Shown piece after piece: positions 14,676-39,813 of a stretch of 49,399 bases of DNA. Both the position numbers and the translations under genes were made by a program. The notes under the pieces were generated by a model, which saw only the letters and a program-made list of their open reading frames with translations, did no database searches and had not been told where the DNA came from. Every line of letters starts with the position of its first letter. The first letter of the stretch is position 1. This DNA comes from an uncultured Gemmatimonadales bacterium (GTDB taxonomy: Bacteria > Gemmatimonadota > Gemmatimonadetes > Gemmatimonadales > Gemmatimonadaceae): assembly GCA_963850905.1 (NCBI GenBank), contig CAWKMU010000002.1:1-49399 (forward strand), written 5' to 3'.

Positions 14676-14843
14676 TCGACGGCTGATCCCCACCCCCGCT
14701 GGCTATTAGGGCGTCACGCCTACGGGTGCAAGCAATCGAGCCACGCCGGCGCGGGCTGATCACGCAATCCGCGCTGTCGCGCCTGCGCCGCCCTCACCAA
14801 GGGCCGCCAGAAACTCGCGGTGCGTCAAGATACGCGGCGTCGG

Positions 14844-16877: not shown

Positions 16878-16883
16878 TGTGCT

Positions 16884-18331: not shown

Positions 18332-18355
18332 ACCCGGTCGAGCGATTCTCGCTTC

Positions 18356-19234: not shown

Positions 19235-19255
19235 CGAACAGTGCTCCAGCCGCGC

Positions 19256-20329: not shown

Positions 20330-21459
20330 AGCTCGGGATGCCCGCCGTACTGATGCCAAATGCGGCACGTCCCTTCACTACTCACCATGCACGCGCCGAC
20401 CGGACTGTCGGGCACGCATTCGCGGCCGAACAGGGAGCAGTTCGACGGAGAGGCAATGCCGGCCATGATGTCGCCGCAGACGCACAGTTGCGTGAGCGCA
20501 GCTGGCGCGTGTCGCCACAATCGCTGCAGGTCGATGGAAAATCGGTGTCGCGCGTCGAGATGCGCGAACTCGTCACGCAGTCGCAAGTTTCCATTGGGCA
20601 CGTGCGCAATGCCACGCCAGCGGCCGCCAGTAGTCCGAAAGACACGCCAGAGCTGGGCTTGCGCGTTTCGATTGCCCGCCGCAGTGACACATCGCGGAAA
20701 CATGTTCACCACGCGCGGCGTGCGATCCCGCACGAGCTCGACCAGCTTGACGAGGCCCGCCAGAATGTCGAGCGGCTCGAACCCGGCTACGACGACGGGG
20801 ATCTGATGTCGCTCGACGAATCGCTCGAAGATTGCCCACCCCGTGATCGTGGCCGCGTGGCCGGCGGCGAGGAAGCCCTCGACCCGCGTGCCGGGCATCT
20901 CCGCAACGATCTCCATGACCGGTGGGATGTACTTGTGGGCAGAGAGAACGGAGAAATTCGGAGGGGGATCGTCCAGAATGACCGCGGCAGTCGCGACGGC
21001 TGTCGTCTCGAACCCGCTGGCGAAAAAGACGACCTCCTCGCTCGTGTCTCGTGCGAGCTCGACGGCCTGCGTCGCACTGTACACCACGTCGACACGCGCA
21101 CCAGCACCCAGCACGTCGGCGAGTGAGTACGCGCTGCCCGGGACCTTGAGCATGTCCCCGTACGTCGCGATCCGCACGCCGTCTTGCGCGAGCACGACGG
21201 CTTCATCGACCTCTGGCAGGTCTGTGACGCACACTGGGCAGCCCGGGCCCATAATGACGTCGAGCGCGCGCGGTAGCACCGCGCGAAGACCGAACTTGGC
21301 GATGGCCTGCTCGTGGCTCCCGCAGACGTGCATCAGGGAGATGGGCGAGCGACCAGTTTCGGTGCAGAGCCGTTCGAGCGCTTGCGCGAGGGCGTGCGCG
21401 CGTGTGGAATCTCGGAACTTGAGCTCACTGCCTGCTTGGAGCGTCACAAGGTCGGACAT
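20326..21459 (-). CDS. hypD: Hydrogenase maturation protein HypD
   Basis: MHVCGSHE, GPGCPVCVT, GFETT, GFEPLDIL, PVGACMVSSEGTC. Confidence 0.96.
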   Translation of the reverse strand: MSDLVTLQAGSELKFRDSTRAHALAQALERLCTETGRSPISLMHVCGSHEQAIAKFGLRAVLPRALDVIMGPGCPVCVTDLPEVDEAVVLAQDGVRIATYGDMLKVPGSAYSLADVLGAGARVDVVYSATQAVELARDTSEEVVFFASGFETTAVATAAVILDDPPPNFSVLSAHKYIPPVMEIVAEMPGTRVEGFLAAGHAATITGWAIFERFVERHQIPVVVAGFEPLDILAGLVKLVELVRDRTPRVVNMFPRCVTAAGNRNAQAQLWRVFRTTGGRWRGIAHVPNGNLRLRDEFAHLDARHRFSIDLQRLWRHAPAALTQLCVCGDIMAGIASPSNCSLFGRECVPDSPVGACMVSSEGTCRIWHQYGGHPEL

Positions 21460-21743
21460 TGGCTGCCTCCCACGCCGCTTGCATTGATCTCGCCACGGAC
21501 GTCGCTCGCCATCAGGTCTGCGTCCGAGTCCGCGAGCAACCGCTCATACAGTGCCAGCGTCTCACCAATCTCAGAGGCGGGAATTTTCCGGATCGCGAAC
21601 CCGACGTGGTTGAGGATGTAGTCACCCGGGATGACCGGTTCGTCGATCACGTCGAGCCGGGTCTCGCGACGGACACCCCAGAAATCGACGATCGCCACTC
21701 GGTCGTTGACCTGGACGACTTGGCCCGGCACACCTAAGCACAT
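21444..21743 (-). CDS. hypC: Hydrogenase maturation chaperone HypC
   Basis: MCLGVPG...PGDYILNHVGFAI. Confidence 0.96.
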   Translation of the reverse strand: MCLGVPGQVVQVNDRVAIVDFWGVRRETRLDVIDEPVIPGDYILNHVGFAIRKIPASEIGETLALYERLLADSDADLMASDVRGEINASGVGGSQCPTL

Positions 21744-24085: not shown

Positions 24086-24771
24086 GCGACGACCGCCTGA
24101 GTGGCAACCCGCGCCTCGCACACTAGGCGCCGAAGCAGCGCGTACCACTCATTCAGGCCCTCGCCGGTCAGCGCCGACGTGGTGACGCACGCGAGGTTCG
24201 GATTGACGTCTCGCGCACATCGCGTCGCTGCCTCGAGGTCGAACGGCACGTAGGGGAGCAAATCGATCTTCGTAAACACTGCGTATTGCGCGCGCTGGAA
24301 CACCGACGGGTACTTCTCTGGTTTATCCTCGCCCTCGGTCACGGAGAACAGCACCACTTTCGCCGATTCCCCGAGATCCCACGCGGCGGGACAAACGAGA
24401 TTGCCGACATTCTCGATGAACACGAGTTGGACATCTCGGAGCGTGATCGCGTCCAGTGCGGTGTCGACCTGCCGAGCGTCGAGGTGGCACGCGCCCCCGG
24501 TGACGACGGCATGGACCAACTGCGCGGTATGCCGCTCGAGGCGTCGGGCGTCGTTCTCCGTCTGCACGTCTCCTACGATCACCGCTGTCGCTATCTCGTT
24601 GCCCAGCGCATCGAGCGTACGTTCGAGCAGAGTCGTCTTACCAGCTCCCGGCGACGAGACGAGATTGATGGCGACGGTCCCGCTGGCGTGGAGTCTTTCC
24701 CTGATCCCGCGGGCGATGTCGTCGTTGCGCGCCATGACGCGCTCGCGCAGCTCAATGCGCCGGATGGTCAT
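24082..24771 (-). CDS. hypB: Hydrogenase nickel-insertion GTPase HypB
   Basis: SSPGAGKTTLLE, TGGACHLDA, ENVGNLVCPA, SVTEGEDKP.KYP, TKIDL; short form without His-rich N-terminus. Confidence 0.95.
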   Translation of the reverse strand: MTIRRIELRERVMARNDDIARGIRERLHASGTVAINLVSSPGAGKTTLLERTLDALGNEIATAVIVGDVQTENDARRLERHTAQLVHAVVTGGACHLDARQVDTALDAITLRDVQLVFIENVGNLVCPAAWDLGESAKVVLFSVTEGEDKPEKYPSVFQRAQYAVFTKIDLLPYVPFDLEAATRCARDVNPNLACVTTSALTGEGLNEWYALLRRLVCEARVATQAVVA

Positions 24772-25012
24772 CGTCGAGCTCGAAGTACCGCACGCGGAGG
24801 ATATCACCAGGACAGCGTACAAGGACGGGCTGGGCCCGAGCAAAGGGCGGCCCGGCGAGGACCGCGTGCAGACAGAAATCCAGGCTAGTCAGGTCGACCC
24901 CGGCGTCGTCTCCCACATCCACGGCGACCGTCACGACATTGGGCAGCGCCTCCGCCCCCACGTGCGCTTCCGCGATGCGGCAGATCTCGAGCGCGATGCT
25001 CATCTCATGCAC
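24752..25012 (-). CDS. hypA: Hydrogenase nickel metallochaperone HypA, short form lacking zinc finger
   Basis: GTG start gives MHEMSIA...VG..AGVD..SLDFC...GDILRVRYFEL (86 aa); located between the protease and hypB; no CxxC pairs. Confidence 0.85.
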   Translation of the reverse strand: MHEMSIALEICRIAEAHVGAEALPNVVTVAVDVGDDAGVDLTSLDFCLHAVLAGPPFARAQPVLVRCPGDILRVRYFELDDDHPAH

Positions 25013-25517
25013 ACGCCGACTCCGGCCGCTCAGACGCGTGGTGGCCCCAGGCCGCCAGCTGCGAGGCACTTAGTGCAATGACGCCGTCGACCGCCGCCGC
25101 GACCGGTACCGACAGCGGCTCGCCAAACACGACCCGTCCCGGCTGCGCGCCGATCGCCGTGATCGCGCTCGGATACGTGCCTCGCAACTCGGCGAGTGCG
25201 AGCACATCGCGCAAGCCCACCTGATGCGGCGAGATCGACAGATCGAGGCGCCGTGGCAGCTCGTTGGCATCGAGCGTGATGATCGTCCCGGGTGCGGCAC
25301 CCACGTCGATCGCGTCGATGACCAGCAACCGATCCGCCGCCTCCACAGTCGGCAGCAGTCTGAGCCCCCACGTCTCGCCATCGACGATCGTCACGTCGTG
25401 TCCCCAGTCCCAACGTTGGAGGCGGCGCAGCACTATCGCACCCAGCCCGTCATCCCCCATGAGCGGATTGCCGAGGGCCAGGACGACGGTGCCGCCGGTC
25501 GGATCACTCGTCCGCAT
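25005..25517 (-). CDS. Hydrogenase maturation endopeptidase (HyaD/HybD family)
   Basis: VLALGNPLMGDDGLG, VDGETWG, LLVIDAI, SPHQVGL. Confidence 0.93.
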   Translation of the reverse strand: MRTSDPTGGTVVLALGNPLMGDDGLGAIVLRRLQRWDWGHDVTIVDGETWGLRLLPTVEAADRLLVIDAIDVGAAPGTIITLDANELPRRLDLSISPHQVGLRDVLALAELRGTYPSAITAIGAQPGRVVFGEPLSVPVAAAVDGVIALSASQLAAWGHHASERPESACA

Positions 25518-26286
25518 ACCGCTCGTCGGCCTCGACGAATCGCCCGCCGCTCACGATCGACGTGATGGCGCTAGAGCGCTCGATGACATCCGAGCGGACC
25601 GCGAGGTATATGTGGAACGGGATGAAGATGAGAAAGAACCACGTGGTCACGTGATGCACGAACCGGACGACCTGCAGGCCCCCAAGCAGGTGCGGGACCC
25701 AGGCGAACGCGACGTAGATCACGCCACCAGGATTCGACTGCCCATAGAGCGCGAAGCCGGTCAGCACCATCACGAGCGTCAGGACATAGACCAGCGTGTA
25801 CGACAGCTGCTGCAGCGGATTGTGTCCCAAATAATGCGGCGCACGCTCCGGATGGATCATGAGATAGTACTTGACCATGCGGTACAAATTGACCCAGTCC
25901 CGCCTTCGGACTGGGAAGAGCGCGGGGAGGCGCTCGAATTTGTCGCCGGCGATCAGCCAGTACAGGCGGACGATCCCTGTCGCGACCAGCACGCCCGCCG
26001 CCAGGAAGTGGGTGAGTCGGATCCAGCCCATGAGGTAGGGCGTGCTCGTGCTCTCTGGCGGAGCAAAGTACGGCGCGCCTATGTAGAAACCGGTCACGAT
26101 CAGCACCACGATCGACACCGCCGCCGCCCAATGCATTGCGCGAATGGGCCAGTGCCAGAGATAGACCCAGCGGTAGGACCCCTGCGGCGCTCCAACCTCG
26201 TGCCGCAGCGAAAACGGCGGCCTCGCGTGGGGGTTCCTGCCGAAGGCGGGGGTTCCTGGGCCCGTGGCGGACGGCATTGATGTCAT
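25504..26286 (-). CDS. Ni/Fe-hydrogenase b-type cytochrome subunit (HyaC/CybH family)
   Basis: YLWHWPIRAMHW, TGFYIG.P, RLTHF, GHNPLQQLSY, RFVHHV.TW...HIYL; TGATG coupling to the large-subunit stop. Confidence 0.93.
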   Translation of the reverse strand: MTSMPSATGPGTPAFGRNPHARPPFSLRHEVGAPQGSYRWVYLWHWPIRAMHWAAAVSIVVLIVTGFYIGAPYFAPPESTSTPYLMGWIRLTHFLAAGVLVATGIVRLYWLIAGDKFERLPALFPVRRRDWVNLYRMVKYYLMIHPERAPHYLGHNPLQQLSYTLVYVLTLVMVLTGFALYGQSNPGGVIYVAFAWVPHLLGGLQVVRFVHHVTTWFFLIFIPFHIYLAVRSDVIERSSAITSIVSGGRFVEADERYADE

Positions 26287-28001
26287 CAGTGCACCGTGAT
26301 GCGCGTGATGACGTCTCCCTTGGCGTCGAGCACATGCACCCCACACGCCATGCAGGGATCGAACGAGTGGATCGTCCGAAGGATCTCGAGCGGTTGCTCG
26401 GGGTTGCGGAGCGGATGATTGTCGACCAAGGCCGCTTCGTACGGCCCCATCTGCCCCTTCTCGTCCCGGGGCGAACAGTTCCAGGTGCTCGGCACGACGC
26501 ACTGGTACCGAGTGATCTTCCCATCGCCAATCTCGACCCAGTGCCCGAGCGCGCCGCGCGGCGCATCCACATAGCCGTAGCCCCGCGTCGTCCGCGGCCA
26601 GGCCGCGGGATCCCATTTCGAGTCATCGAAGGTGCGCACGTCGCCCGAGCCGATGCGCTTCACAAGGGCGTCGTACCACGTATTGAGCCGTCGAGCGATG
26701 AGAATCGTTTCGATGCCACGGGCGGCGGTGCGACCGAGCGTCGAGAACAACGCCTCGGGACTGACGCCGAGCTTGGCCAGCGTCTCGGTCACGAGGGGCT
26801 TCACATCGGGGTGGCCGGACCCGTACGCGACGAGCATGCGGGCGAGCGGTCCCACCTGCATCGGCACGCCGTTGTACCGCGGCGCCTTCATCCAGGAGTA
26901 CTTCGACTCGTCTTGCAGGTATTTCCAGGGCGTCGGCGGTCCCGTGTACTTGGGCTTGGTCTGCCCGTCGTACGGATGGAGCCCCTTCTCGTCGCCGCCA
27001 TCGTACGTGTACCAGGAGCTGTGGATGTACTCGGCGACGCCGTTGTGATCGTAGGGCTCGACATGGCTCAGATCACCGTTGGTGATGACGCCGCGTGGAA
27101 AATAGAGCGAGGTGACGTCCCGGACGTCGCTCTCCGGGAACTCGCCGCAGGCGAGAAAATTCTTGGTACCCCCGCCGATCTTCGCCCAATCCTTGTAGTA
27201 ACCCGCAATGGCCACGAGATCGGGCCAATAGACCTGCTCCGCAAATTGCTGCGCCTTCGCGATGAGATCGTGGATTTCGGTGAGGCGCGCGGCATTGATC
27301 GTCGTCAACCCGTCGAGCGAGATCGCCGACGCCATCCCACCGACCAGGAAATTGGGGTGCGGGTTTTTCCCACCGAAGATCGTGTGCAACCGAACCACGT
27401 CACGCTGCCAGTCGAGGGCATCGAGGTAATGCACGACCGCGAGCAGGTTCACCTCTGGCGGCAAGACATACGCCGGATGCCCCCAGTACCCGTTCGCAAA
27501 GATGCCCAGCTGGCCACTGCCGACAAACTTCTTGAGGCGGTCCTGCACCTCACGGAAGTGTGCCACTGAGTTCCCTGGATATGGCGAGAGCGACGCGGCG
27601 ATCCCCGCGGCCTTCGCGGGGTCGGCCTTGAGCGCTGAGACGACGTCCACCCAGTCGAGCGCGTGCAGATGGTAGAAGTGCATCACGTGGTCGTGCACGA
27701 ACTGCATCCCGGTGACAAGATTCCGAATGAGGTTCGCGTTCGCCGGGATATGGATGTCGAGCGCGTCCTCCACGGCGCGCAACGAGGCGACGGCGTGGAC
27801 GACCGTGCAGACGCCGCAGATGCGCTGTGCAAAAGCCCACGCGTCGCGGGGATCGCGACCCTGCATCACGAGCTCGATGCCGCGAAACTGCGTCGAGGAC
27901 GCCCAGGCGTTGGCGATGCGGCCGTTCTCCGCCTGCGCTTCGATGCGCAGGTGCCCTTCGATACGCGTGATCGGATCGACGACGACTTTAGTCGGAGCCA
28001 T
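26286..28001 (-). CDS. Group 1 [NiFe] uptake hydrogenase large subunit
   Basis: DPITRIEGHLR, L1 QRICGVCTVVH, L2 SFDPCMACGVH followed by a 15-aa cleavable extension. Confidence 0.97.
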   Translation of the reverse strand: MAPTKVVVDPITRIEGHLRIEAQAENGRIANAWASSTQFRGIELVMQGRDPRDAWAFAQRICGVCTVVHAVASLRAVEDALDIHIPANANLIRNLVTGMQFVHDHVMHFYHLHALDWVDVVSALKADPAKAAGIAASLSPYPGNSVAHFREVQDRLKKFVGSGQLGIFANGYWGHPAYVLPPEVNLLAVVHYLDALDWQRDVVRLHTIFGGKNPHPNFLVGGMASAISLDGLTTINAARLTEIHDLIAKAQQFAEQVYWPDLVAIAGYYKDWAKIGGGTKNFLACGEFPESDVRDVTSLYFPRGVITNGDLSHVEPYDHNGVAEYIHSSWYTYDGGDEKGLHPYDGQTKPKYTGPPTPWKYLQDESKYSWMKAPRYNGVPMQVGPLARMLVAYGSGHPDVKPLVTETLAKLGVSPEALFSTLGRTAARGIETILIARRLNTWYDALVKRIGSGDVRTFDDSKWDPAAWPRTTRGYGYVDAPRGALGHWVEIGDGKITRYQCVVPSTWNCSPRDEKGQMGPYEAALVDNHPLRNPEQPLEILRTIHSFDPCMACGVHVLDAKGDVITRITVH

Positions 28002-29169
28002 GGCTCGGTCCGGAGGACGGGGAGGAAGGATTGTCCGGCATCACCGGCAACTCACGGGCACGATTCCGCTCGCGGACCTGGTGGATCCCGGTCGCTGCGG
28101 CATGCGCGATGACACCGCCGACTGCACCGACGGCCAGCGCCGCGCCCATGATGTCGGCTGTGCGCTCGACGCCGAGGCCCGTCACATTTGGCAATCGACC
28201 ATAGAACGGCGTCATCACATCCCAGAACGATCGCTCGGTACACCCGAGGCACGGGTGGCCAGCGCCGATCGGCCAACTCGTGTGGTCGTTCCACATGAAG
28301 ACCGGGCACGGTGAAAACGTCGCCGGCCCTTTGCACCCGACCTTGTAGAGGCACCACCCCTTGCGCGCCGCGTCATCGTCGAATGCGTCGACGAACTGAC
28401 CGGCATCATAGTGGGCGCGCCGTGAGCAGACATCGTGGATGCGCTGGCCGTAGGCGAAGAGCGGACGCCCTTCACTGTCGACCGCGGGAAGGCGTCCAAA
28501 AGTCAGGTAGTTCACGATCGTCGCCGTAATGACGTCGGCGATCGGAGGACAGCCTGCGATGTTGACGACATCGCGCCCCTTGAGCACGTCGGCCACGCCC
28601 ACTGCGCCCGTCGGATTCGGTCGGGACGCCTGAATGTTGCCCCAGTGGGCGCAAGCGCCCACCGCGACGATCGCCGCAGCACCCTCCGCCGCCTCCACCA
28701 AAATCTCGCGCGCGGTTCGGCCTCCGATCGTCGTGTAAATCCCGTTCTCATTGAGTGGGATCGATCCGGTGACGACGAGCACGTACTTGCCATGGTTCTC
28801 GGCCATCGCGCTGTGGAGTGCCCGCTCGGCAGCCGACCCGGCAGCCGCCATCAGGTTCTCCTGGAAATCGAGCGAGATGAGATCGAGAACGAGCGTGCCG
28901 ATCGTCGGGTCCGCGCTGCGCAAGACGGACTCGGTGCAACCCGTGCACTCTTGCAGCGACAGCCACACGACGCTGGGCCGGCGCTGCTCCTCCAGCGCCC
29001 GGGCGATCCGCGCCCCGCCGAGGCTCCCGAGGCCGAGCATGACTGCCATCTGCGAGCAGAAGCTCAGAAACTCGCGCCGACTGACGCCGCGCTGCGTCAG
29101 TTGCTCCGTCAGCGGCGCCGTGTCAGACCAGGGAACGGCTGGAGGCGTGTACACAATGCGCTCCGGCAT
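27988..29169 (-). CDS. Group 1 [NiFe] hydrogenase small subunit with Tat signal and C-terminal membrane anchor
   Basis: SRREFL Tat motif, QECTGCTES, GACAHWG, GCPP, HDVC...CLYKVGCKGP, WPIGAGHPCLGC, hydrophobic C-tail; start uncertain (29169-29253). Confidence 0.96.
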   Translation of the reverse strand: MPERIVYTPPAVPWSDTAPLTEQLTQRGVSRREFLSFCSQMAVMLGLGSLGGARIARALEEQRRPSVVWLSLQECTGCTESVLRSADPTIGTLVLDLISLDFQENLMAAAGSAAERALHSAMAENHGKYVLVVTGSIPLNENGIYTTIGGRTAREILVEAAEGAAAIVAVGACAHWGNIQASRPNPTGAVGVADVLKGRDVVNIAGCPPIADVITATIVNYLTFGRLPAVDSEGRPLFAYGQRIHDVCSRRAHYDAGQFVDAFDDDAARKGWCLYKVGCKGPATFSPCPVFMWNDHTSWPIGAGHPCLGCTERSFWDVMTPFYGRLPNVTGLGVERTADIMGAALAVGAVGGVIAHAAATGIHQVRERNRARELPVMPDNPSSPSSGPSHGSD

Positions 29170-29446
29170 GGGTGAGACGCCGCATTGGCCGAGCGTCTTC
29201 GCCGCGGCGTCGTACGAGGCATTGAGCGGTGTCAGCACCGCGCAGTCGCCCAACGCGCGCTAAGTGACCATCACACGGCCGACCGCGCCAGAGGCGATTC
29301 CCCTACACGGCGTGCCAGCGCCGAAGAGCTCGTTCACCGATCGGAGACCAACCGGCGGGGTCGCACCAGCATCCTGTTCGGTACACCCAGGGGTCCGTGC
29401 TGGCCGCGTGCGAGTGCGTTACGGAATCGAGACTCGGTGACGAAGT

Positions 29447-29564: not shown

Positions 29565-31115
29565 ATGCAGCCGATCGTGCGCAGGTGGATTATTGCGGCC
29601 GTAGTGACCGTGGCCACGGTGGCCGGGGTCGTGGCGTGCGTCAGTGATCACATTATCTACAAGAGCACGCAGTTCCCCGCCCCGCCGTCGGGCGCCGCTG
29701 ACTACGTCGGGTATGCGGAGGTCTCAGCGAAGATGACGGTGTGCGGCAACTGCCACATCGATCGGCAGACGGAGTGGCTGGCTACCAAGCATGCAAGCGC
29801 ATGGGCGGACCTGATCGCGACGGGCGAGAACCCAGCGCCCTGCGCGATGTGCCACACGGTGAACAACAACGGCAATCAGCCCGCTGGCGCCGACACCGCG
29901 GTCGGGTATCGATCGACGCTCGCGGCGCGTTACCAAGATGTGCAGTGCGAATCATGCCACGGCCCAGGCTTGACGCACGTCACGAGTCCCTCGATCACCA
30001 ACCGGCCGCTCGCGTCCCTCGACGTCGGTTCGGTGGCTACCACCATCAAGGCGTGCGGTCAATGCCACCATGGCGCGCACGAGCCCTTCGAGGACGAGTG
30101 GTCGATGTCGCGCCATGCGACCGTGCCCGTCTGGAAGACCGGCGCACATCCCGAGGCCAACCCCGCCTGCCAGTCATGTCACACGGGGCAAGGCGCTCTC
30201 CTCGCCTGGGGCGTGAGCACGAATTACAAGGAAGCGGGCTTCGCCGGGGGTGACACGCTCAACATCACGTGCGGTGTGTGTCACGACCCGCACCCGATCA
30301 ACCTCTATCCGGCGCAGCTGCGGTTCCCCGACTCCGTCCCGGACGTCCAGACCAACCTCTGCATGAAGTGCCACCAAAACGGCAGCGGGTTGGACCCCGA
30401 GACGGTGAAGTATGGGCCGCACTCGCCCGAAGGCCCGCTGCTCTTGGGAATCGCCGGCTGGTGGCCGCCCAACCTCCAGGTGGCAGGTGGGCTGGATACG
30501 ATCGTGAGCACCCACGGGACCACGGCCAATCCCAGGCTCTGCGCGACGTGCCACGTCAACCCGTTCACCGTGACCGATTCCTCGGGCAAGTTCGTGCTCA
30601 GTGTGACGGGCCATCTGTTCGAGGCCGCGCCGTGCGTAAACTCGCAGGGCATCCCAACAGGAGATACGATCTGCGTGACGTCTCAGCGGAGTTTCGCTGC
30701 CTGCGCCGCGAGCGGGTGTCATGGCAACGCCGCAGCGGCCGCGTCCGCATTCACCTCCGAGCAGGCCCTCGTGGCGTCGCTGGACACGACGCTCCGGGCG
30801 CAGCTCACGACGGTGCTGACTGCTACGCCGGCTGAGACCGCGTCGGCGAACACGACGTTCACGGTTGCACAAGGCTCGCTGTTTAACGCCAAGCTGGCAG
30901 AGTTCCGTGGATCGTTCGTTCACAATCCGTTCTTGATTCAGGCGCTGCTCACGGCGAGCATCGAGGAGATGACGGCACAGTACGGGGTGATGGCCGCTCG
31001 CGTGCGGTCCTTGCCCGAGATCATGGCGCGGTATCGCGCGTACAAGCTCCATCATCTCGCTCCGGCCGGCATTCCAAGAGTGAGTCCGACCATCATCCGT
31101 CTCGGGCAGCGTTAG
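29565..31115 (+). CDS. Multiheme c-type cytochrome lipoprotein (8 CxxCH + 1 CX4CH)
   Basis: Signal ending VVAC; CGNCH, CAMCH, CESCH, CGQCH, CQSCH, CGVCH, CMKCH, CATCH, CAASGCH; helical C-terminal region. Confidence 0.9.
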   Translation: MQPIVRRWIIAAVVTVATVAGVVACVSDHIIYKSTQFPAPPSGAADYVGYAEVSAKMTVCGNCHIDRQTEWLATKHASAWADLIATGENPAPCAMCHTVNNNGNQPAGADTAVGYRSTLAARYQDVQCESCHGPGLTHVTSPSITNRPLASLDVGSVATTIKACGQCHHGAHEPFEDEWSMSRHATVPVWKTGAHPEANPACQSCHTGQGALLAWGVSTNYKEAGFAGGDTLNITCGVCHDPHPINLYPAQLRFPDSVPDVQTNLCMKCHQNGSGLDPETVKYGPHSPEGPLLLGIAGWWPPNLQVAGGLDTIVSTHGTTANPRLCATCHVNPFTVTDSSGKFVLSVTGHLFEAAPCVNSQGIPTGDTICVTSQRSFAACAASGCHGNAAAAASAFTSEQALVASLDTTLRAQLTTVLTATPAETASANTTFTVAQGSLFNAKLAEFRGSFVHNPFLIQALLTASIEEMTAQYGVMAARVRSLPEIMARYRAYKLHHLAPAGIPRVSPTIIRLGQR

Positions 31116-31222
31116 CAGCTGGGATGGCGCGGCCACGGCACATCGTCCGCGCAGCCCGCCGCCTGCATGGGCGCTTGCGCGTGATGATGGCCAGCGAGCC
31201 CGCACACGTCGTGGTCTGACCA

Positions 31223-33265
31223 ATGCTATGGCCTGCGGCGTCGGGGGTGATGCTCGCCCGTTCGATTACCGGTGGATGGCAGGCGGTCGAGCGGATCAAA
31301 GGCGACACCGCCGAGCTCGACTCGGTCGTGGTCCGCTCCCCATTGCCTGGCGGCGTCGCGCGCGTCGTCCGCTTCCTTTTCAACCTGCCCGCCTGGTTTC
31401 AGATCGCCGGCTTCATTGCCGGGCTGATCATCGCGGGGGTCGTGGTGGTGCTGCTGTGGCACCGGCGACGGCGCATTGTGGCGTGGTTTCTCCATCGCTC
31501 ACGTGCGGCGCTGGTTGGGCTGGGCGCCGCTGCCGTGGTCGTTCTAACGGCCGCAGCACTCGCCGCGAATGTGAGTTGGAACTACACGCAGCACAACAAC
31601 AATTTTTGCGTGGCGTGCCACGTTATGACGGATGCGTACACGCGCTTCCAGACGAGTGCGCATTGCACATTGCAGTGCCACGACTGCCACGAGCAGTCGA
31701 TCTTCGCCAGCATGATGCAGGTGTACTACTGGGTGGCCGAGCGCCCGCAATCGATTCCGGCTCACGCCAAAGTCCCCACCGCCGTTTGCGCTCGATGTCA
31801 TATCCAGGGCCCGGCGAGCAAGACCTGGCAGCGCGTCATCGCGACCGCCGGGCACAGCGTCCACCTGCGCTCCGACGACCCGCGGCTGCGCAACGTGCAG
31901 TGCGTAACCTGCCACGGGACGGAGCTGCACCGATTTCTCCCGGTCGAAAGCACGTGCGGGCAATCCGGATGCCATGCCGGGATCACGGTCGAGCTGGGCA
32001 AAATGAGGAATCAGACGACCCTCCACTGCGTCACCTGTCATCCGTTCACGACGCCAGTTGTCGAACACCTTTCGCCCGATTCCGCAGCGCGAGCGCTCGC
32101 GCCGGCTATGCAGCAGTGCCTGGACTGCCACGCGATGCGACAGGCTATGGCCTCGTTCAATCCAGTCGCGGACCCACATAAGGGCCAGTGTGGATGGTGT
32201 CACGATCCGCATGTCCAGACCACGCCGGCGGCGGCCTTCACGACCTGTACGAACGCCGGCTGTCACGCGAGCGCGGACACCCTCACCGCAATGCACCGCG
32301 GCCTGCCGCACCACACATTGGCCAACTGCGGCGCATGTCATGCCGCGCACACGTGGAAGGTCGAGGCGACCGCCTGCCTGCGATGTCACAGCAATATTTT
32401 CCGCACCCCTGCCCATCCCGCGGTTCCCGCGCCCGCGCGGACTGCTCGGGCCGCTGGCGCGGCGAGTGACGTCGCTGCCATCCCCGTTGCGAGGCGACCG
32501 GCTGGCCGGGCCAACCCATGGTGGTGGCGGTCGATCGTCTGGGTCGCGCGCCGCGTAATACCACGCGGTGCCCCGCCCCTGATGATGGTGGCCACCACCG
32601 CGCCCGACGACACAGTTCGACGAGGGCTACCGGGGGGGGCCATAGTGCGGGTCGCGATGGCCGCGACGGATACGCTTCCACCATTCTCACATCAGGTCCA
32701 TCGGTCCATTGCGTGTGCTGCCTGTCACAACAGCACGGAGCAACACGGGTCGATCACTGTGCGCTCGCTGCACGACTGCCAGGCGTGCCACCACGCAGTG
32801 ACCCAGCAACGGACCTGCGCGCAGTGCCATGCCAGCGACTCCGTCGCCCGGCGCGCAATGGTTGCCGTGATGATGCGGACATCAGTGCGATCCGTCACCG
32901 AGACCCGGCGGCTACCCTTTCTCCACCAGCAGCACGAGGCCATTGAATGTCGCACCTGTCACACGCAACCGGTGACGCTGGCCGCACGGTCGTGTAGCAA
33001 CTGCCACGCCGATCACCACCGAGTCGAAGCCAGGTGCCTGGACTGCCACGACCCCGCGCCGACATGGCACGATCGCGCCGCGCACACGGGCTGTGGCGGC
33101 TCGGGGTGTCACACCAATGCGGCGGTGCTCGCGCTGCCACCGACGCGCAACGTGTGTCTCGTGTGCCACGCGCAGCAGGTGACACATTATCCGGCACGGG
33201 AATGCACGACGTGTCACGGCGCCTCGTGGACGGTCGCACAGGAGCCAGAGGGAGGTCGGTCATGA
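31223..33265 (+). CDS. Membrane-anchored multiheme cytochrome c with NapC/NirT-like N-terminal module (17 CxxCH + 3 CX4CH)
   Basis: Two N-terminal hydrophobic helices, WNYTQHNNNFCVACHVM (CxxCHxM as in NapC/NrfH), then 19 further heme motifs; start uncertain. Confidence 0.88.
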   Translation: MLWPAASGVMLARSITGGWQAVERIKGDTAELDSVVVRSPLPGGVARVVRFLFNLPAWFQIAGFIAGLIIAGVVVVLLWHRRRRIVAWFLHRSRAALVGLGAAAVVVLTAAALAANVSWNYTQHNNNFCVACHVMTDAYTRFQTSAHCTLQCHDCHEQSIFASMMQVYYWVAERPQSIPAHAKVPTAVCARCHIQGPASKTWQRVIATAGHSVHLRSDDPRLRNVQCVTCHGTELHRFLPVESTCGQSGCHAGITVELGKMRNQTTLHCVTCHPFTTPVVEHLSPDSAARALAPAMQQCLDCHAMRQAMASFNPVADPHKGQCGWCHDPHVQTTPAAAFTTCTNAGCHASADTLTAMHRGLPHHTLANCGACHAAHTWKVEATACLRCHSNIFRTPAHPAVPAPARTARAAGAASDVAAIPVARRPAGRANPWWWRSIVWVARRVIPRGAPPLMMVATTAPDDTVRRGLPGGAIVRVAMAATDTLPPFSHQVHRSIACAACHNSTEQHGSITVRSLHDCQACHHAVTQQRTCAQCHASDSVARRAMVAVMMRTSVRSVTETRRLPFLHQQHEAIECRTCHTQPVTLAARSCSNCHADHHRVEARCLDCHDPAPTWHDRAAHTGCGGSGCHTNAAVLALPPTRNVCLVCHAQQVTHYPARECTTCHGASWTVAQEPEGGRS

Positions 33266-34737
33266 CCATCGGCGGCTACCGCGTAGCCGCCGTCGCCCTC
33301 ATCGGCCTGGGTCTTTCGGCACATTCCTCGTGCGCGCAGGGCGTGCGCATCACCGGGACGACCACCGTGGACTACGAGGAGTTACAACCGCTCGTAGTCG
33401 ACAGCGTACCGCTATCGGCCGCGACAACCGACACCGGACTGCTGCGTCAAACCGCCAACGGCACCATCGTGGAGTGCGTCGGCGTCGACCAGTATTGCAG
33501 CTATTACCGGTCCGCGAGCACTCTCAGCACCGTCCCGATCCTCCAGGATGTGACGCTGGCGGGCTGGGGCTTGGGAGAGGGCGTCAGCATCTACGCCGAT
33601 GCGGAGGTGCGAACGTCAGTCGGCAGCGCGCCCGACGTCCTGCCGCTCGCCAGTCAACACTTCGATCTCATTGCCGCCTATGCGGAGCTCGACCGCAGCA
33701 TCGTGCGAGCGCGGCTCGGCCGACAGTGGATCACCTCTCCACTCGGCTACTACGCCTTCGACGGCGGCTCGGTGCTCGTCGCACCGGCTCGTGGCCTCAC
33801 GACTCAAGTCTACGGCGGCTGGGGCTTGGCTCAGGCGCTCACATACGAGCGCACGAGCCCCGTGATATCCGCCGTCGAGAGTCTCGCGCCCACTGACCCT
33901 GGATATATTCTCGGCGCCAGCGTGGACTACCACCCCACGGGGGTGGCCGGCGTAAGCGTGCAATACCAGCGTGAGATCGAGACGAATTTCGAGGGACTCT
34001 ACTCCGAGCGGGTCGCGGGCAGCGGGGACCTCCGAATCGGACGGACGCTGTTCGACGCCCAGATCATCTACGACATCGCGACTGGTGACGTCAATAACGC
34101 AGACCTGCGCGCGCAGCTCCCGCTGGGCACGCAGTGGACGCTGACCGGCCAGATCCGACACTATGTCCCCTTCTTCGAGCTGTGGACGATCTGGGGCGCG
34201 TTCTCACCCGTCGGCTACAACCAGGGCCTGCTCTCCGCGTCCTGGGGCAGGACCGACCAGCGCTTTCGCATCGACGCGAGCGCGGACTACCGCCAGTACG
34301 AGAACACCGATGCGGGCCTCAGTTTCCTTCCGCTCAGGTCCAATGGCTTCGATGTGGGTCTCGACGGCACGTGGCGGGTCACCCCGGTGTGGAGCGTGCT
34401 CGGGGGGTACCACCTGCTCGTCGGCGTGGGTTCCTCGCGCAGCGACGGAGACGCTGGGGTTCGCTGGGGAGTCGGCAGGCGCGGATCCATCGGGCTCACG
34501 GGCTCGGCTTTCCAGAGCATCGACGAATTCACCATTGGCACGGGACTCGTCCTGGGACTCGCGGCAAACGGCTCATATCGCCTCATGGACGTGCTCCGCC
34601 TGCAGGCGGACTTCGGGGCCTATCACCATGTGGGGACCGACACGCCACAAATTGCGAACTGGGACCAGCGGCGAGCCTCGGTACAGCTCATGTGGACCGT
34701 CGGGCGAGACCCGGGTCTGTCATGGATGCATCAATGA
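33262..34737 (+). CDS. Putative outer-membrane beta-barrel (porin-like) protein
   Basis: 491 aa; Sec-like leader; alternating amphipathic strands rich in G/Y/W (AYAELD, RARLGRQW, DGGSVLV, VGLDGTWRV, ASVQLMWTV); ATGA-coupled to cytochrome genes on both sides. Confidence 0.75.
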   Translation: MTIGGYRVAAVALIGLGLSAHSSCAQGVRITGTTTVDYEELQPLVVDSVPLSAATTDTGLLRQTANGTIVECVGVDQYCSYYRSASTLSTVPILQDVTLAGWGLGEGVSIYADAEVRTSVGSAPDVLPLASQHFDLIAAYAELDRSIVRARLGRQWITSPLGYYAFDGGSVLVAPARGLTTQVYGGWGLAQALTYERTSPVISAVESLAPTDPGYILGASVDYHPTGVAGVSVQYQREIETNFEGLYSERVAGSGDLRIGRTLFDAQIIYDIATGDVNNADLRAQLPLGTQWTLTGQIRHYVPFFELWTIWGAFSPVGYNQGLLSASWGRTDQRFRIDASADYRQYENTDAGLSFLPLRSNGFDVGLDGTWRVTPVWSVLGGYHLLVGVGSSRSDGDAGVRWGVGRRGSIGLTGSAFQSIDEFTIGTGLVLGLAANGSYRLMDVLRLQADFGAYHHVGTDTPQIANWDQRRASVQLMWTVGRDPGLSWMHQ

Positions 34738-36305
34738 GGCTGCGCGTGGTTCTAATGCTCCTCGCCTCGGGCTCAGTCGCAGGAGCCCAGCCGCAGGTGC
34801 AGGACTCCTTCCCTCATGTTCGCCACGCGAAGATGTTCCCCACCTGTGAGGCGTGTCACGCCGGCATCGCCACTGGCAACACCGCGACCAGCTACCCCGC
34901 CCCCGCGCTATGCGCCAATTGCCACGACGGCCGCGTCGCACGTGTCGTCACGTGGAATGGTCCGGCACTCCACCCGACCAATCTCGCGTTTTCTCACCAG
35001 CGGCACGCGCAGGCAGAGGCTCGAGCCGGCAGCACGATTATCCCGTGTGCGAGTTGTCACGCGCGGCCCGACAGCGCGCGAATATGGATGGCCGTCGGGC
35101 GCGCACCCCCCGTAGCGTGCCTTGCGTGCCATGCGCACGCGGCCAGCGGCCATCTCGCGGACGACAACGGGTGTACCACGTGCCATGTGCCACTGACCCG
35201 CGCCACCACCTTGACGACGGCAACAATCGCTGCGTTTCCGCGTCCACCATCCCACGACCAACCTGGGTTTTTGTCCGCGCACGCCCCCAGAACCGCACCA
35301 GATGAGGCGCGGTGCGCGACGTGCCACACCCGGGAAAGCTGTGAACGGTGCCACGTGAATGCTGACAAACTCGCCACCATTATCGAGCTCGGATCCGACG
35401 CGCGCGTCGCACGCATAGTTGCAGGCCGGGCAGGAGTCTACCCGGTCCCGACCGACCACCAAACATCGCGGTGGGCGACGGACCACGCAGATGCCGCGCG
35501 GCGCTCCATTGCGACATGTGCAAATTGTCACGCCCAGTCGAGCTGCAAGGCCTGTCACATTGGAGTCGGCCCGATCGCGTCCATAGCTGCGCTCCCCGTT
35601 GCTGTCCCCGGCAAGGCCCAGGGGGTCGTGGTCCGACACACGCCGACCGGCGCGCCACCCATACCCACGCCGGGGATCAACCCGGCGCCTCCACAAGCGG
35701 CGCGCACCCCGGATTCGGGAAATGCACGCGCCAGCGTCCGGGGTCCGGGTGGCTCCGCGCCCGTTGCGGCGCGCGATAGCGGTGGCCTCTACCTGGTGCA
35801 GGTTCACTGGCCCGGCTTCCTCACATCGCACGCCCCGATTGCCGCGACCGGTCAGCTCGCCTGCGCGAGCTGCCACACCCAGCGCTTCTGTACCGACTGT
35901 CACGCCGGAGAGCAGCGCCGCAATTTCCACCCCGCGAACTTCATCGCACGACATGCCAACGAATCGTACAACCGCCAGATCGACTGCACGAATTGTCATA
36001 ACCCTGAGGCATTTTGTCGCACGTGCCACTTCAATGTCGGCGTAGGCACGCGCAATCCGCGGAATGCCGCGTTCCATACCGGCCAACCGCTGTGGCTGCT
36101 CCAACACGGACAAGCGGCTCGCCAGTCACTCGAGAGCTGCACGACCTGCCATCAACAACAGGACTGCATGCGCTGCCACTCAACACTCGGGTGGGGTGTC
36201 AATCCGCACGGGCCTGGCTTTGATCCGCGACGCATGGCCGCTCGCAACCTCCAGGTCTGCCTCGAGTGCCACCTGACGAATCCGTTGACCAGCCCGGGGC
36301 AATAG
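34734..36305 (+). CDS. Secreted 16-heme c-type cytochrome
   Basis: 523 aa; leader MRLRVVLMLLASGSVAGA; 16 CxxCH; FPH..H and FSH..H cytochrome c3/c7-like distal His motifs; five doubled CxxCH pairs. Confidence 0.9.
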   Translation: MRLRVVLMLLASGSVAGAQPQVQDSFPHVRHAKMFPTCEACHAGIATGNTATSYPAPALCANCHDGRVARVVTWNGPALHPTNLAFSHQRHAQAEARAGSTIIPCASCHARPDSARIWMAVGRAPPVACLACHAHAASGHLADDNGCTTCHVPLTRATTLTTATIAAFPRPPSHDQPGFLSAHAPRTAPDEARCATCHTRESCERCHVNADKLATIIELGSDARVARIVAGRAGVYPVPTDHQTSRWATDHADAARRSIATCANCHAQSSCKACHIGVGPIASIAALPVAVPGKAQGVVVRHTPTGAPPIPTPGINPAPPQAARTPDSGNARASVRGPGGSAPVAARDSGGLYLVQVHWPGFLTSHAPIAATGQLACASCHTQRFCTDCHAGEQRRNFHPANFIARHANESYNRQIDCTNCHNPEAFCRTCHFNVGVGTRNPRNAAFHTGQPLWLLQHGQAARQSLESCTTCHQQQDCMRCHSTLGWGVNPHGPGFDPRRMAARNLQVCLECHLTNPLTSPGQ

Positions 36306-36473: not shown

Positions 36474-37352
36474 GTGGATGACATCCATCTCACCATAGGT
36501 CCATGCGCAACCATCTCTGTGGCTCTCGCGTTTAGTCTGACGGTCGCCGGCTGTCAATCGAAGCAGTCCCCCGCGTCTGCGCCGCCACCGCCGCCCCCGG
36601 CGTCCGTGACCATACACGCCAGAGACTACGCGTTCGATGCTCCGGACGAGATACCTGCAGGCGTCACCACATTCCACCTCGTGAACGATGGGCCGGGCTT
36701 GCACCACGCCCTGTTCGTGCGCCTCGACAGCGGCAAAGCGGTTGGTGACCTGCTGGCGTCGCTCAAGAAGCACAGCCCCCTGCCTGGCTGGGCGACATTC
36801 GTCGGCGGTCCCAACGTGCCCGATCCAGGCAAAGAGTCGGTCGCCACGCTCGACCTTACGCCCGGCAACTACGTGATCATTTGCATCCTCGACATGCCGG
36901 GCGGTGTGCCGCACTACATGAGGGGAATGTTTCGCCCGCTAACCGTGACGGCTGCTGCTGCCACGACCGCCGCGGCGCCCAAGGCGGTCATACCGGTCGC
37001 CGACAACGCGATTCAGCTCAGCGACTTCCGGTTCGTGCTCGTGGACTCGATCACAGCAGGTACGCACACGATCCAAGTCGTGACCGCCCCCGGGCAGCCA
37101 CACGAGGTGCTCGTCGTACAGCTCGACAGCGGCAAGACGGGGCAGGATTATGTCAATTGGACTCAGGCGATGAAGGGCCCCGCGCCCGGCCACGCGATCG
37201 GCGGGACGGCCGCTGCCGGCCCAGGGGTCGTCCAAGTGTTCACTGCGACGTTCACGCCTGGCAATTACCTGCTGATCTGCTTCGTCCCGGACATGAAGAC
37301 CGGAAAGCCCCACTTCATGGAGGGGCATATGCGCACGATCAAGGTGAATTGA
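36474..37352 (+). CDS. Lipoprotein with two cupredoxin-like domains
   Basis: Signal ending VAGC; duplicated H...PGNY(V/L)(I/L)IC-X9/10-H-x-M-x-G-(H)M copper-ligand pattern. Confidence 0.75.
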   Translation: MDDIHLTIGPCATISVALAFSLTVAGCQSKQSPASAPPPPPPASVTIHARDYAFDAPDEIPAGVTTFHLVNDGPGLHHALFVRLDSGKAVGDLLASLKKHSPLPGWATFVGGPNVPDPGKESVATLDLTPGNYVIICILDMPGGVPHYMRGMFRPLTVTAAAATTAAAPKAVIPVADNAIQLSDFRFVLVDSITAGTHTIQVVTAPGQPHEVLVVQLDSGKTGQDYVNWTQAMKGPAPGHAIGGTAAAGPGVVQVFTATFTPGNYLLICFVPDMKTGKPHFMEGHMRTIKVN

Positions 37353-37397
37353 GCTGAAAGGGAGCGAGGCCGCGAATCAGCAACACCCGGGGGAGGA

Positions 37398-37967
37398 GTG
37401 TCTGACCACGAATTTCCGCTCGGCCAGAGTGCAGAAGCGTCAAGCCCGATGACCGACTCCCCGGTTGGACGGCGCCGCTTCCTGCAATGGGTGAGTGGCA
37501 TCGGCGCCACACTGGGCGCTGTGTTGATTGGCGTACCGGTGCTTCGCGCGTTCTTTTCCCCAGCGCTCCCGAGGGCGCGATCCGATAGCTGGGTGAAGGT
37601 CGCCGACGACGTAGCCGTCATCGATACCGGTGTCCCGGTGCGCGTGACCTTCGTCGAGAACCGCGTCGATGCGTGGCTCGAAGTTCAGCAGATCAACAGC
37701 GTGTGGCTCTACACGGAAGACGGAAAGACCTTCAAGGCGTACAATCCGCATTGCACGCACCTGGGGTGCGCGTATGGATACAACAGCGAAACCAAGAACT
37801 TCGCCTGCCCGTGCCACCGCGGACAGTTCGACGTCAAGACAGGACGCGTGCTGGCGGGCCCCCCGCCACGTGGGCTGGACGAGTTGAGAACGGACGTGCG
37901 CGATGACGCCGTCTGGGTAGAGTATAAGGACTTTCGCCTCGGCGTCTCGCACCAGATCGAGGCGTGA
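37398..37967 (+). CDS. Rieske [2Fe-2S] subunit of a quinol:cytochrome c reductase
   Basis: GRRRFL Tat motif plus TM, CTHLGC and CPCH boxes, GPPPRGL. Confidence 0.94.
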   Translation: MSDHEFPLGQSAEASSPMTDSPVGRRRFLQWVSGIGATLGAVLIGVPVLRAFFSPALPRARSDSWVKVADDVAVIDTGVPVRVTFVENRVDAWLEVQQINSVWLYTEDGKTFKAYNPHCTHLGCAYGYNSETKNFACPCHRGQFDVKTGRVLAGPPPRGLDELRTDVRDDAVWVEYKDFRLGVSHQIEA

Positions 37968-39472
37968 TGTTCCAGGCCGCGCGCCTCTGGATCGACGAGC
38001 GCGTAGACCTCACCGGCCTGCGCCGGACGCTGCTCGAGCGCAAGGTGCCGGCGGGGCTCACATGGTGGCACACGCTCGGCAGCGCCACACTGACGGTGCT
38101 CGTGGTGCAGGTCGTGACGGGAGTTGTCCTCGCCATGTACTACGCGCCCTCGCCGGATCACGCCTACGATAGCATTCGCTATATCGACCACACGGTCGCT
38201 AGCGGAGCAGTGCTCCGAGGCATCCATCACTGGGGTGCGTCGGCGATGGTTGTGCTCGTCTGCGCCCACATGGTACGGGTCTTCACGATGGGCGCCTACA
38301 AGTATCCGCGTGAGATCAATTGGCTCCTCGGCGTGTGCCTGTTGTTCGTCGTGTTGGGTTTCGGATTTACCGGGTACCTGCTGCCATGGGACCAGAAGGC
38401 CTACTGGGCGACGCAGGTCGGCACGAACATCGCCGGCACGACGCCGGTCATCGGCGGAGTCTTGGTCGAGCTCCTCCGCGGCGGAAGCCAACTCGGTGCC
38501 GCCACGCTCACACGATTCTACTCGCTGCACGTGCTCGTCCTGCCGATCTTGATCGGGATTGTCGTGTTACTGCACCTCGCCCTCGTCGTCCGCCAGGGCA
38601 TCGCATCGGCACCCGCGGTGCTCGAGCGGGACGCGCCGCCACGGACGGACGACGGGGCCTACGCCAATTTCTATCGCGAGACCTACACAAAGTCGAAGGC
38701 CGACGGCGTTCGGTTCTGGCCCGACATCATCACGAAGGACATTGTGGTCGCGACGGGTGTCGTCGCGGTGCTCGTCCTGTTGGGGTGGCTGCAGGGAGCC
38801 GGTCTCGAGCCCGCCGCTGATCCGACCGACACTGGGTACGTGCCGCGACCCGAGTGGTATTTCCTGCCGTTCTTTCAATTGCTGAAGCTCGTGCCCGGCT
38901 CCATCGAGAGCTTGATCGCTGTGGGCGTGCCTGGGCTGATCGCGTTGGTGTTGCTCCTGCTCCCGTTCTTCGATCGGCGCAGCATCCGCTCGCTCAATCG
39001 GCGCCCGGTGGCGCTGCTCTCGCTCGCCGGGACGGCCGCGGCGGCGGCGCTCCTCTTCGGTTCGTCGGTCCGTGGTGCCCCGTCCCCGCCGAGTGTGCCG
39101 GAAGTGGGGCGGCCACTGACCTACGTCGAGCGCACGGGTCGAACGTTGTATGTGCAGCAGCAATGCGGCGGTTGCCACGAGATCAAGGGCCAGCCAGTGC
39201 AAGAGAGACTGAGTGGAGCCCCGAATGCGCCAGAGCTCACGGAGATCGGCCTCTTGCACTCAACCAATTGGTTGCACAGCTTCATCGAGGAGCCGAGGCG
39301 CTTTCATCCGGACTCGAAGATGCCAGCGTTCGGGCCACCGACGCTCAGCCACCAGGAAATCGAGGAACTGGCACAGTATCTCTCCTCGTTGCGTGGCCCG
39401 AACTGGGCGACCCAGCAACCCGAGTTCCGCGACACCTTCCCCGAACTGGTGAAATCCAAGGGCACACCATGA
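37964..39472 (+). CDS. Cytochrome b fused to a C-terminal monoheme cytochrome c
   Basis: RGIHHWGAS...HMVRVF, FTGYLLPWDQKAYWAT, RFYSLH...LLHL, PRPEWYFL, then CGGCH...MPAF. Confidence 0.94.
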   Translation: MMFQAARLWIDERVDLTGLRRTLLERKVPAGLTWWHTLGSATLTVLVVQVVTGVVLAMYYAPSPDHAYDSIRYIDHTVASGAVLRGIHHWGASAMVVLVCAHMVRVFTMGAYKYPREINWLLGVCLLFVVLGFGFTGYLLPWDQKAYWATQVGTNIAGTTPVIGGVLVELLRGGSQLGAATLTRFYSLHVLVLPILIGIVVLLHLALVVRQGIASAPAVLERDAPPRTDDGAYANFYRETYTKSKADGVRFWPDIITKDIVVATGVVAVLVLLGWLQGAGLEPAADPTDTGYVPRPEWYFLPFFQLLKLVPGSIESLIAVGVPGLIALVLLLLPFFDRRSIRSLNRRPVALLSLAGTAAAAALLFGSSVRGAPSPPSVPEVGRPLTYVERTGRTLYVQQQCGGCHEIKGQPVQERLSGAPNAPELTEIGLLHSTNWLHSFIEEPRRFHPDSKMPAFGPPTLSHQEIEELAQYLSSLRGPNWATQQPEFRDTFPELVKSKGTP

Positions 39473-39813
39473 CCGTGCATGTGGTGACGATCCTCCTACT
39501 ACTGCTCGCACCGCATGCGGGGGGCGTTCTGGGGCGCGACGTCGCTTCGCAAGGCGATAGTGCCAAGATCCTCTATAGCCAGAACTGCCTACAATGTCAC
39601 GGCGTGCGAGGACTCGCGCCGAAGGGCATCAAGGCAACATTTCCCAAGATCCCCACGTTTGACTCGGCGTTTAGCGCGTCGCACACACAGGACTCGATCG
39701 TGAAAGTGCTCACGCACGGGAAGAGTACAGACATGCCGTCGTTCAGCGGCAAGCTCACGCCGGCAGAGATGGCGACCGTCGCCAAGTACGTTCGGGGACT
39801 CGCATCGAAATGA
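39469..39813 (+). CDS. Monoheme class I cytochrome c
   Basis: 114 aa; hydrophobic leader, YSQNCLQCHG, MPSFSGKLT; ATGA-coupled to cytochrome b. Confidence 0.88.
   Translation: MTVHVVTILLLLLAPHAGGVLGRDVASQGDSAKILYSQNCLQCHGVRGLAPKGIKATFPKIPTFDSAFSASHTQDSIVKVLTHGKSTDMPSFSGKLTPAEMATVAKYVRGLASK

Follow-up and report, generated by a model that had tools for sequence, protein, structure and literature searches.

MtrCAB of Shewanella (PDB 6R2Q) and MtoAB/PioAB combine a barrel with a periplasmic multiheme cytochrome, and in the Shewanella system an outer lipoprotein cytochrome and the NapC-type inner-membrane feeder CymA are added. Barrels of the MtrB_PioB family have 28 predicted strands, and the porin-cytochrome (Pcc) clusters of Geobacter (OmbB-OmaB-OmcB, Ext) always hold a porin of 18-22 predicted strands with a periplasmic cytochrome of 5-14 hemes, the outer cytochrome being variable and often carrying atypical CX3-5CH motifs (Shi et al. 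2014, PMC4245776). The PCC3 and PCC4 clusters contain a predicted porin, several multiheme cytochromes and redox neighbours (He et al. 2017, PMC5566968). OcwA of Thermincola (6I5B), which carries nine hemes and reduces iron oxides at the cell surface (PMC7096707, PMC9250108), and OmhA of Carboxydothermus (6QVM) are Gram-positive cell-wall proteins without a porin. We analysed a four-gene module of an uncultured Gemmatimonadales bacterium, encoded on contig CAWKMU010000002.1 (49,399 nucleotides; the window), which is one entire 49-kb contig of a 4.49-Mb, 82%-complete assembly. The module is a real, conserved, and undescribed family within this known kind of system, and its barrel and secreted cytochrome very probably form a heme wire across the outer membrane.

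The module consists, in order, of a lipoprotein cytochrome (A), a membrane-anchored cytochrome (B), a barrel protein (C), and a secreted cytochrome (D), listed in Table 1. An earlier interpretation made without database searches (the sequence-only reading) had given this order with 9, 20, and 16 hemes for A, B, and D, and had the last three genes coupled by ATGA overlaps. Motif counts in each open reading frame (ORF) agreed, with no motif in C and a module total of 45, and the overlaps were found at 33262-33265 (B/C) and 34734-34737 (C/D). The gap between A and B was 107 bp, and the G+C content at third codon positions of the four genes was 0.73-0.82. Beyond A, B, and D, only a single ORF with at least three CXXCH motifs was present in the whole assembly, so the richness of the module in heme motifs was not due to chance. 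No paralogues of A, B, C, or D were found elsewhere in the 4.49 Mb, and the genome as a whole, C included, gave no match to MtrB_PioB.

The AlphaFold2 model of C was a 22-strand transmembrane barrel (pLDDT 89.2, pTM 0.82), as the sequence-only reading had proposed for this strand-rich protein. Alternating hydropathy ran over the 22 membrane strands in the family alignment, with long loops after odd strands and turns of 2-5 residues after even strands. Since strand 1 starts at residue 27, directly behind the signal peptide, the barrel has no plug. The earlier caveat that the protein lacks the usual aromatic terminal residue fell away, because a conserved Trp sits in the last strand (469-481) and what lies beyond this strand is a variable tail, which makes the non-aromatic C-terminus no argument against a barrel. 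Loop 1 holds a conserved Cys72/Cys79 pair, and loop 7 is conserved and rich in Trp. A TonB-dependent receptor was ruled out by the missing N-terminal plug and by the alignment of such receptors over their barrel part only.

Known families gave C no name. Its structural neighbours were generic large barrels, namely TonB-receptor barrels and ushers (Z 15-18), and MtrB (Z 15.5, rmsd 5.2, 360 aligned, 8% identity) did not score above other large barrels. No Pfam or NCBIfam family reached its curated cut-off with the window's C, the presence of an OmbB model in these libraries being unconfirmed. OMP_b-brl was weakly matched by 9 of 87 C family members (best E 1.6e-4), and MtrB_PioB (PF11854), whose model was in the library, by none of the 87 at E<=0.5. 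A sequence search of solved structures with the C profile returned no match at E<=10. All 30 matches in the ESM Atlas were unnamed clusters, the three shown being commonest in Gemmatimonadota, and the nearest named clusters were generic barrels. No Geobacter porin occurred among the 50 VIA matches or the Foldseek matches listed for C, kinship still being possible. A word-indexed search yielded 578 homologues, of which those with a taxon name belonged to Gemmatimonadota, and an exhaustive profile search yielded 573 clusters at 50% identity; among ten distant representatives, the one with a taxon name belonged to Gemmatimonadales. Relatives of C were encoded on 412 stretches of GTDB genomes. In a sample of 401 Gemmatimonadota genomes, which are not independent because of kinship, C was present in 182 genomes and in 80 of 146 genera.

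When C and D were folded together by ESMFold2, the pair scored 0.85 (runs 0.83-0.86), compared with 0.00 for the best of three controls. Of 157 solved complexes, 116 attained the score mark, as did 2 of 215 mismatched pairs; both counts are only approximate here because analyst-made alignments were used for C and D. The runs had at least 75% of contacts in common, with a partner pLDDT of at least 71. The contact zone of D (residues 359-512, hemes 10-16) touched 21 of the 22 strands of C, and 55 of 68 strand contacts were on the polar, lumenal face. Loop contacts fell almost entirely (71 of 72) on loops after odd strands, which the usual topology of barrels places outside the cell, and the best-resolved contacts included the Trp-rich loop 7. 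Hemes 10-16 are thus predicted inside the barrel, and the occupied lumen expected of a conduit was borne out by this heme-free model. Hemes 1-9, which made no confident contact with C in the model, would likely be outside the barrel in the periplasm. In an alignment whose rows were chosen for 16 motifs, 15 non-motif His residues of D were kept at 94-100%, consistent with bis-His electron-carrier hemes.

We further compared the module among 120 loci, comprising the best 80 of the 412 stretches and 40 more distant ones. Gene order was kept in relatives at 27-90% barrel identity. D directly followed C in all 116 loci with enough flank, with the 4-nt overlap in 110 of them, and this strict translational coupling suggests 1:1 assembly. 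Upstream arrangements were scored in 101 loci with enough upstream DNA, where some absences were due to frameshifted assemblies. A occurred with full-length B in 58, with a short B in 13, without B as two copies in 8, and without B as a single copy in 8; loci without A had a full B (3), a short B (1), or neither gene (10). A was therefore present in 87 loci and B full-length in 61, so that the four-gene module of the sequence-only reading stood as to order, while its fixed core was narrowed to C and D. Because A and B vary, C and D are the fixed unit of the module, as MtrAB is in Mtr systems. Several loci with neither A nor B carried other multiheme genes there. The short B versions, eleven of which were read by eye, resembled the C-terminal half of about nine hemes, equipped with a separate signal peptide or lipoprotein Cys.

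Two variants were observed beside these arrangements. In loci L115, L127, L134, L139, L146, L147, and L148 (also L005 and L027), a second cluster type shared this barrel and D, and A and B were replaced or accompanied by other cytochromes, whose heme motifs numbered about 9, 21-24, 11, and 19. Loci L120, L122, L125, L129, and L132 carried an extra pair of large cytochromes (23 and at least 16 motifs) a few kb downstream of D.

In all 92 full-length orthologues of A, a hydrophobic stretch led up to a Cys located 32-40 residues ahead of heme 1. A profile search with A returned OmhA first (6QVM, E 3.8e-22), followed by OcwA (6I5B, E 9.6e-17), and these two were the sole Foldseek entries at E<=0.001. 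The model of A (pLDDT 85.4) aligned best in VIA with OcwA (Z 17.0, rmsd 3.1, 331 aligned, 25% identity) and with OmhA (Z 15.5), ahead of octaheme nitrite reductase, which ranked next (Z 11.2), and NrfA (Z 9-10). A fits a nine-heme core of c554 plus NrfA type with C-terminal helices, and its conserved motifs are CXXCH and CX4CH. OcwA has a conserved non-bonding His at both of its open hemes, H282 and H381 (PMC9250108). At the equivalent positions of A, where the register is uncertain, H172 was kept in 72 of 80 sequences, position 286 was His in 66 and Met in 14, and position 287 was mostly Ser. The conserved lipoprotein Cys and the fold kinship with OcwA and OmhA suggest that A sits on the outer surface. 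Right behind this Cys (29637-29666, + strand), most orthologues kept a short motif of one acidic, one basic, two aliphatic, and one aromatic residue and Arg, which might act as a signal for surface export or as a docking strand.

B begins like NrfH/NapC, followed by an 11-heme N-terminal half, a poorly conserved linker of about 95 aa, and a 9-heme c3/c7-like C-terminal half. Of 57 orthologues, 46 had two hydrophobic transmembrane (TM) helices ahead of the first heme, and the start of B matched NrfH (2J7A, E 1.5e-12); PF03264 scored 21.7 bits, under its cut-off of 24.1. A Met two residues after the first heme motif (CXXCHxM), the NrfH/NapC signature, was present in 41 of 57 orthologues. Judged from these features, quinol oxidation by B is plausible. 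The linker contains a Trp/Arg-rich, amphipathic-looking segment (32500-32560, + strand) that lies outside the family consensus.

The module shares with MtrCAB and MtoAB/PioAB a barrel whose lumen is predicted to hold a multiheme cytochrome from the periplasmic side, translated together with it, and with MtrCAB plus CymA also an outer lipoprotein cytochrome and a putative NapC-type feeder. However, C has 22 strands and 491 aa compared with 649 residues in the MtrB chain, D has 16 hemes instead of the 10 of the Mtr periplasmic partner, A is OcwA-like with nine motifs and not a decaheme of the MtrC/OmcA type, and the feeder is operon-encoded with 20 hemes, unlike that of the MtrCAB system. TIGR03508, the MtrA/DmsE-type decaheme model, was matched by 9 of 86 D family members (best E 0.0037). 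The module was therefore not assigned to MtrCAB, MtoAB, or PioAB, as the barrel family, the periplasmic decaheme, and the outer decaheme all differed; together with the predicted position of D in the lumen, this agreed with the distinct family proposed by the sequence-only reading. As to Geobacter Pcc (OmbB/ExtB), the 22 strands of C fall within the described range, the 16 hemes of D exceed it, and B is an additional 20-heme membrane-anchored protein, a separation drawn from published descriptions of those clusters. The likeness to PCC3/PCC4 lies in the predicted porin, the several cytochromes, and the redox neighbours. Their conserved inner-membrane protein with five TM helices and di-heme b was not found among the four genes, the heme counts are 9/20/16 against medians of 34/21 (PCC3) and 4/5/10 (PCC4), and the strands are 22 against up to 42, the porins being compared by description only (PMC5566968). 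A resembles OcwA and OmhA in its nine hemes, overall fold, and C-terminal helices, but it is a lipoprotein encoded with an outer-membrane conduit, and it appears to have one His-His pair fewer.

No description of the cluster was found in literature searches, in which most subscription papers were outside coverage; supplements of PMC13264449, PMC5566968, and PMC11495043 could list members. Baker et al. report true MtrCAB, a different system, in a single Gemmatimonadetes genome (PMC8805035). In the main text covered, Shi et al. 2014 (PMC4245776) did not name Gemmatimonadota, and a phylum-wide genomic study (PMC10581226) had no word starting with "extracellular electron", "hydrogenase", or "iron". 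In the portions covered of PMC9769843 and PMC13055281, metagenome-assembled genomes of Gemmatimonadota were credited with multiheme or iron-reduction genes only in general terms. The four-gene cluster was not described in the text covered of PMC13264449, PMC6295460, PMC12133095, PMC11495043, and PMC11475568, and the supplements of the last contained no Gemmatimonadota term.

Table 1. Positions of the module genes and neighbouring gene groups in the window.
Feature	Position	Strand	Description
A	29565..31115	+	516 aa; 8 CXXCH + 1 CX4CH = 9 motifs; lipoprotein Cys25; OcwA/OmhA-like fold, C-terminal helical bundle; likely surface terminal reductase
B	31223..33265	+	680 aa; 17 CXXCH + 3 CX4CH = 20 motifs; likely inner-membrane feeder, optional in relatives
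C	33262..34737	+	491 aa; no heme motif; predicted 22-strand plug-less outer-membrane beta-barrel, unnamed family
D	34734..36305	+	523 aa; 16 CXXCH; secreted cytochrome; hemes 10-16 predicted within barrel C
Group-1 membrane-bound uptake [NiFe]-hydrogenase operon	21734..29253	-	small subunit with Tat motif, large subunit, cytochrome b, protease, hypA/B/F; likely electron donor side
Accessory redox genes downstream	36474..39813	+	copper-motif lipoprotein, Rieske protein, cytochrome b-cytochrome c fusion, monoheme cytochrome c; linkage seen in some relatives only
Maturation genes, same island	14844..21459	-	ccmF, probable ccmE (by eye), enoyl-CoA hydratase-like gene, hypE, hypD

The hydrogenase operon lies upstream of the module in divergent orientation. 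Two extra Cys residues in the small subunit are a feature of oxygen-tolerant hydrogenases; they were absent here and in all 22 copies found in the loci. Hydrogenase groups 1c and 1f are termed functionally enigmatic in a preprint (10.1101/2020.11.15.383943). The hydrogenase was present in 109 of the 401 genomes; 105 of these also had the barrel, and the other 4 were among the 219 barrel-negative genomes. Within the window's own family the hydrogenase was present in 18 of 28 barrel-positive versus 3 of 68 barrel-negative genomes, and in the largest family the barrel accompanied the hydrogenase in each of the 75 genomes that had the latter. Both positions were listed in 84 of the 105 genomes; in 44 they were on the same contig, 38 of these within 30 kb and 20 within 10 kb. 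Clade II nosZ, used as a control, was less nested than the hydrogenase: 118 of 164 nosZ-positive genomes had the barrel, and 46 of 219 barrel-negative genomes had nosZ. In a FastTree tree of 110 of the 111 barrels, hydrogenase linkage appeared in several clades with 13 changes, 10 of them forced by strong branches, although absences in this tree are unreliable because flanks were short. The close tie of an electron-supplying hydrogenase to the module favours outward electron flow without proving it.

We infer the direction of flow, the surface exposure of A, and the acceptor. The adjacent hydrogenase, whose identity is established, would reduce the quinone pool via its cytochrome b. B, with its two-helix anchor and NrfH-like start, may oxidise quinol, its tethered 9-heme arm spanning the periplasm; loci without B could rely on different partners in the inner membrane, for example a Rieske/cytochrome b pair. 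D would then take electrons on hemes 1-9 and relay them along hemes 10-16 inside the 22-strand barrel, and A at the outer face would accept them, with Fe(III)/Mn(IV) minerals, humic substances, or partner cells as the acceptors that it reduces. The module would thus be a trans-envelope wire, of a family typical of Gemmatimonadota, that exports respiratory electrons, here probably from H2. We consider such a full outward conduit, with A at the surface and in a family distinct from MtrCAB, PCC3, and PCC4, to be the likely reading.

Several observations weigh against it. The C and D pair was folded without hemes and with alignments made by the analysts, and its score may partly reflect likeness, because MtrAB is a solved complex of similar design. 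The match of B to NrfH covers the anchor and the first two hemes only, and the residues of the NrfH quinol site were not evident in B. A full-length B was lacking in 40 of 101 loci, through absence or truncation, and A was missing in 14, some of them frameshifted assemblies. No match for this hydrogenase was found in 77 of the 182 barrel-positive genomes, and since nosZ is also enriched with the barrel, part of the hydrogenase link would reflect a general low-oxygen lifestyle. The lipoprotein Cys of A is no proof of surface exposure, and A appears to carry His/Met-Ser where OcwA and OmhA carry His-His near one open heme. The reduction of nitrite and hydroxylamine by OcwA (PMC7096707) and the portrayal of Gemmatimonadota as mostly aerobic (PMC10581226) add to these points, and each also bears on an alternative.

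One alternative keeps the conduit and reverses it: Fe(II), reduced humics, or partner cells would supply electrons that pass mainly inward, as in MtoAB/PioAB or as proposed for PCC4, to the Rieske/cytochrome b pair and oxygen respiration. The aerobic portrayal of the phylum and the Rieske, cytochrome b-c, monoheme cytochrome c, and copper-motif lipoprotein genes downstream of the module would suit such a route, as would Rieske-like genes in the flanks of 19 and cytochrome b-like genes in those of 25 of the 120 loci, and porin-cytochrome clusters beside bc1 subunits have been likened to PCC4 (PMC13264449). However, the low-potential electrons of an uptake hydrogenase almost confined to barrel-positive genomes need a sink, A resembles known terminal reductases, and the oxidative MtoAB/PioAB clusters have no outer cytochrome in the sources covered, yet A was present in 87 of 101 loci; mainly inward flow appears unlikely. 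It is rather improbable, too, that C and D form a conduit while A is a periplasmic nitrite, hydroxylamine, or sulfur-oxyanion reductase fed by B, two functions being bundled in one operon. A does belong to the NrfA/ONR/HAO/MccA fold group (Z 8-11 against these enzymes), B starts like NrfH, the usual partner of NrfA, OcwA reduces the same nitrogen compounds, and A or B can be missing while C and D persist. But the surface proteins OcwA and OmhA scored well above those enzymes, the lysine-ligated motif typical of NrfA/ONR (PMC9250108) was not among the conserved motifs of A, and A is duplicated or swapped for other multiheme proteins, much as Pcc outer cytochromes vary.

The barrel might also be no electron conduit at all, serving as an export pore or anchor for D, or otherwise while the cytochromes act as a periplasmic electron store. 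The 45 hemes could serve as a capacitor, and the best structural matches of C are generic, its TonB-receptor and usher neighbours matching it about as well as MtrB does. Against this, the model fills the lumen with seven hemes' worth of D, packed on the most conserved loop, and the strict C/D coupling suggests assembly one to one, so that we hold a barrel without conduction to be very improbable. As an outward conduit, the wire may, in a wider proposal that we put forward tentatively and would not yet favour over its negation, have been independently built in Gemmatimonadota, a dominant soil phylum regarded as mostly aerobic heterotrophs, be present in almost half of their species, and act as the dedicated sink of the group-1 uptake hydrogenase. 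Such a respiration, from H2 to minerals or from H2 to humics, would have gone unrecognised because it escapes standard marker tools. If so, a very abundant soil and sediment phylum would join the respirers of minerals, humics, or electrodes through genes still labelled hypothetical, and estimates of what drives iron and carbon redox cycling in soils of fluctuating oxygen would need revision. It would also add a further structural solution for crossing the outer membrane beside Mtr and Pcc, suggest a function for a group-1 hydrogenase of unclear role, and offer an enrichment strategy with H2 and Fe(III), anthraquinone-2,6-disulfonate (AQDS), or an anode.

Around the module, no conserved FNR/CRP/Rex-type box was found in 93 upstream regions. 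A loose palindrome occurred in five of these (shuffle maximum 2) and not in the window, and promoter and terminator scans stayed at chance level. The region had no match in a plasmid collection, and a plasmid origin is not favoured, because in a 90%-identical relative this region belongs to a contig of 3.98 Mb.

Between D and the Rieske gene, a predicted lipoprotein (36474-37352, + strand) carries two repeats with copper-site-like His/Cys/His/Met motifs, as judged by eye, and had no confident family match. It was absent from this position in the 90%-identical relative (L001), was near the module only in L003, and has a homologue on contig C4. The following genes (37398-39813, + strand) encode a compact bc-type complex, which comprises a Rieske protein, a fusion of cytochrome b with subunit IV and a c-type heme domain, and monoheme cytochrome c; the cytochrome b fusion scored 227 bits against NCBIfam ExtP, below the cut-off.

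Homologues of ccmF were found in the flanks of 38 of the 120 loci. The enoyl-CoA hydratase-like gene (18356-19234, - strand) lies directly behind hypE, and this pairing recurred at about 70% identity in seven conduit-adjacent loci. Stretches of 10545-16877 were 88-97% identical to contig C4, and the window's ccmF was 83% identical in DNA to a copy on contig C3, similarities that would stem from a recent duplication or from a contig of a close strain. Near the start of the window, positions 268-1617 (+ strand) encode an erythromycin esterase family protein (PF05139, E 9.7e-133).

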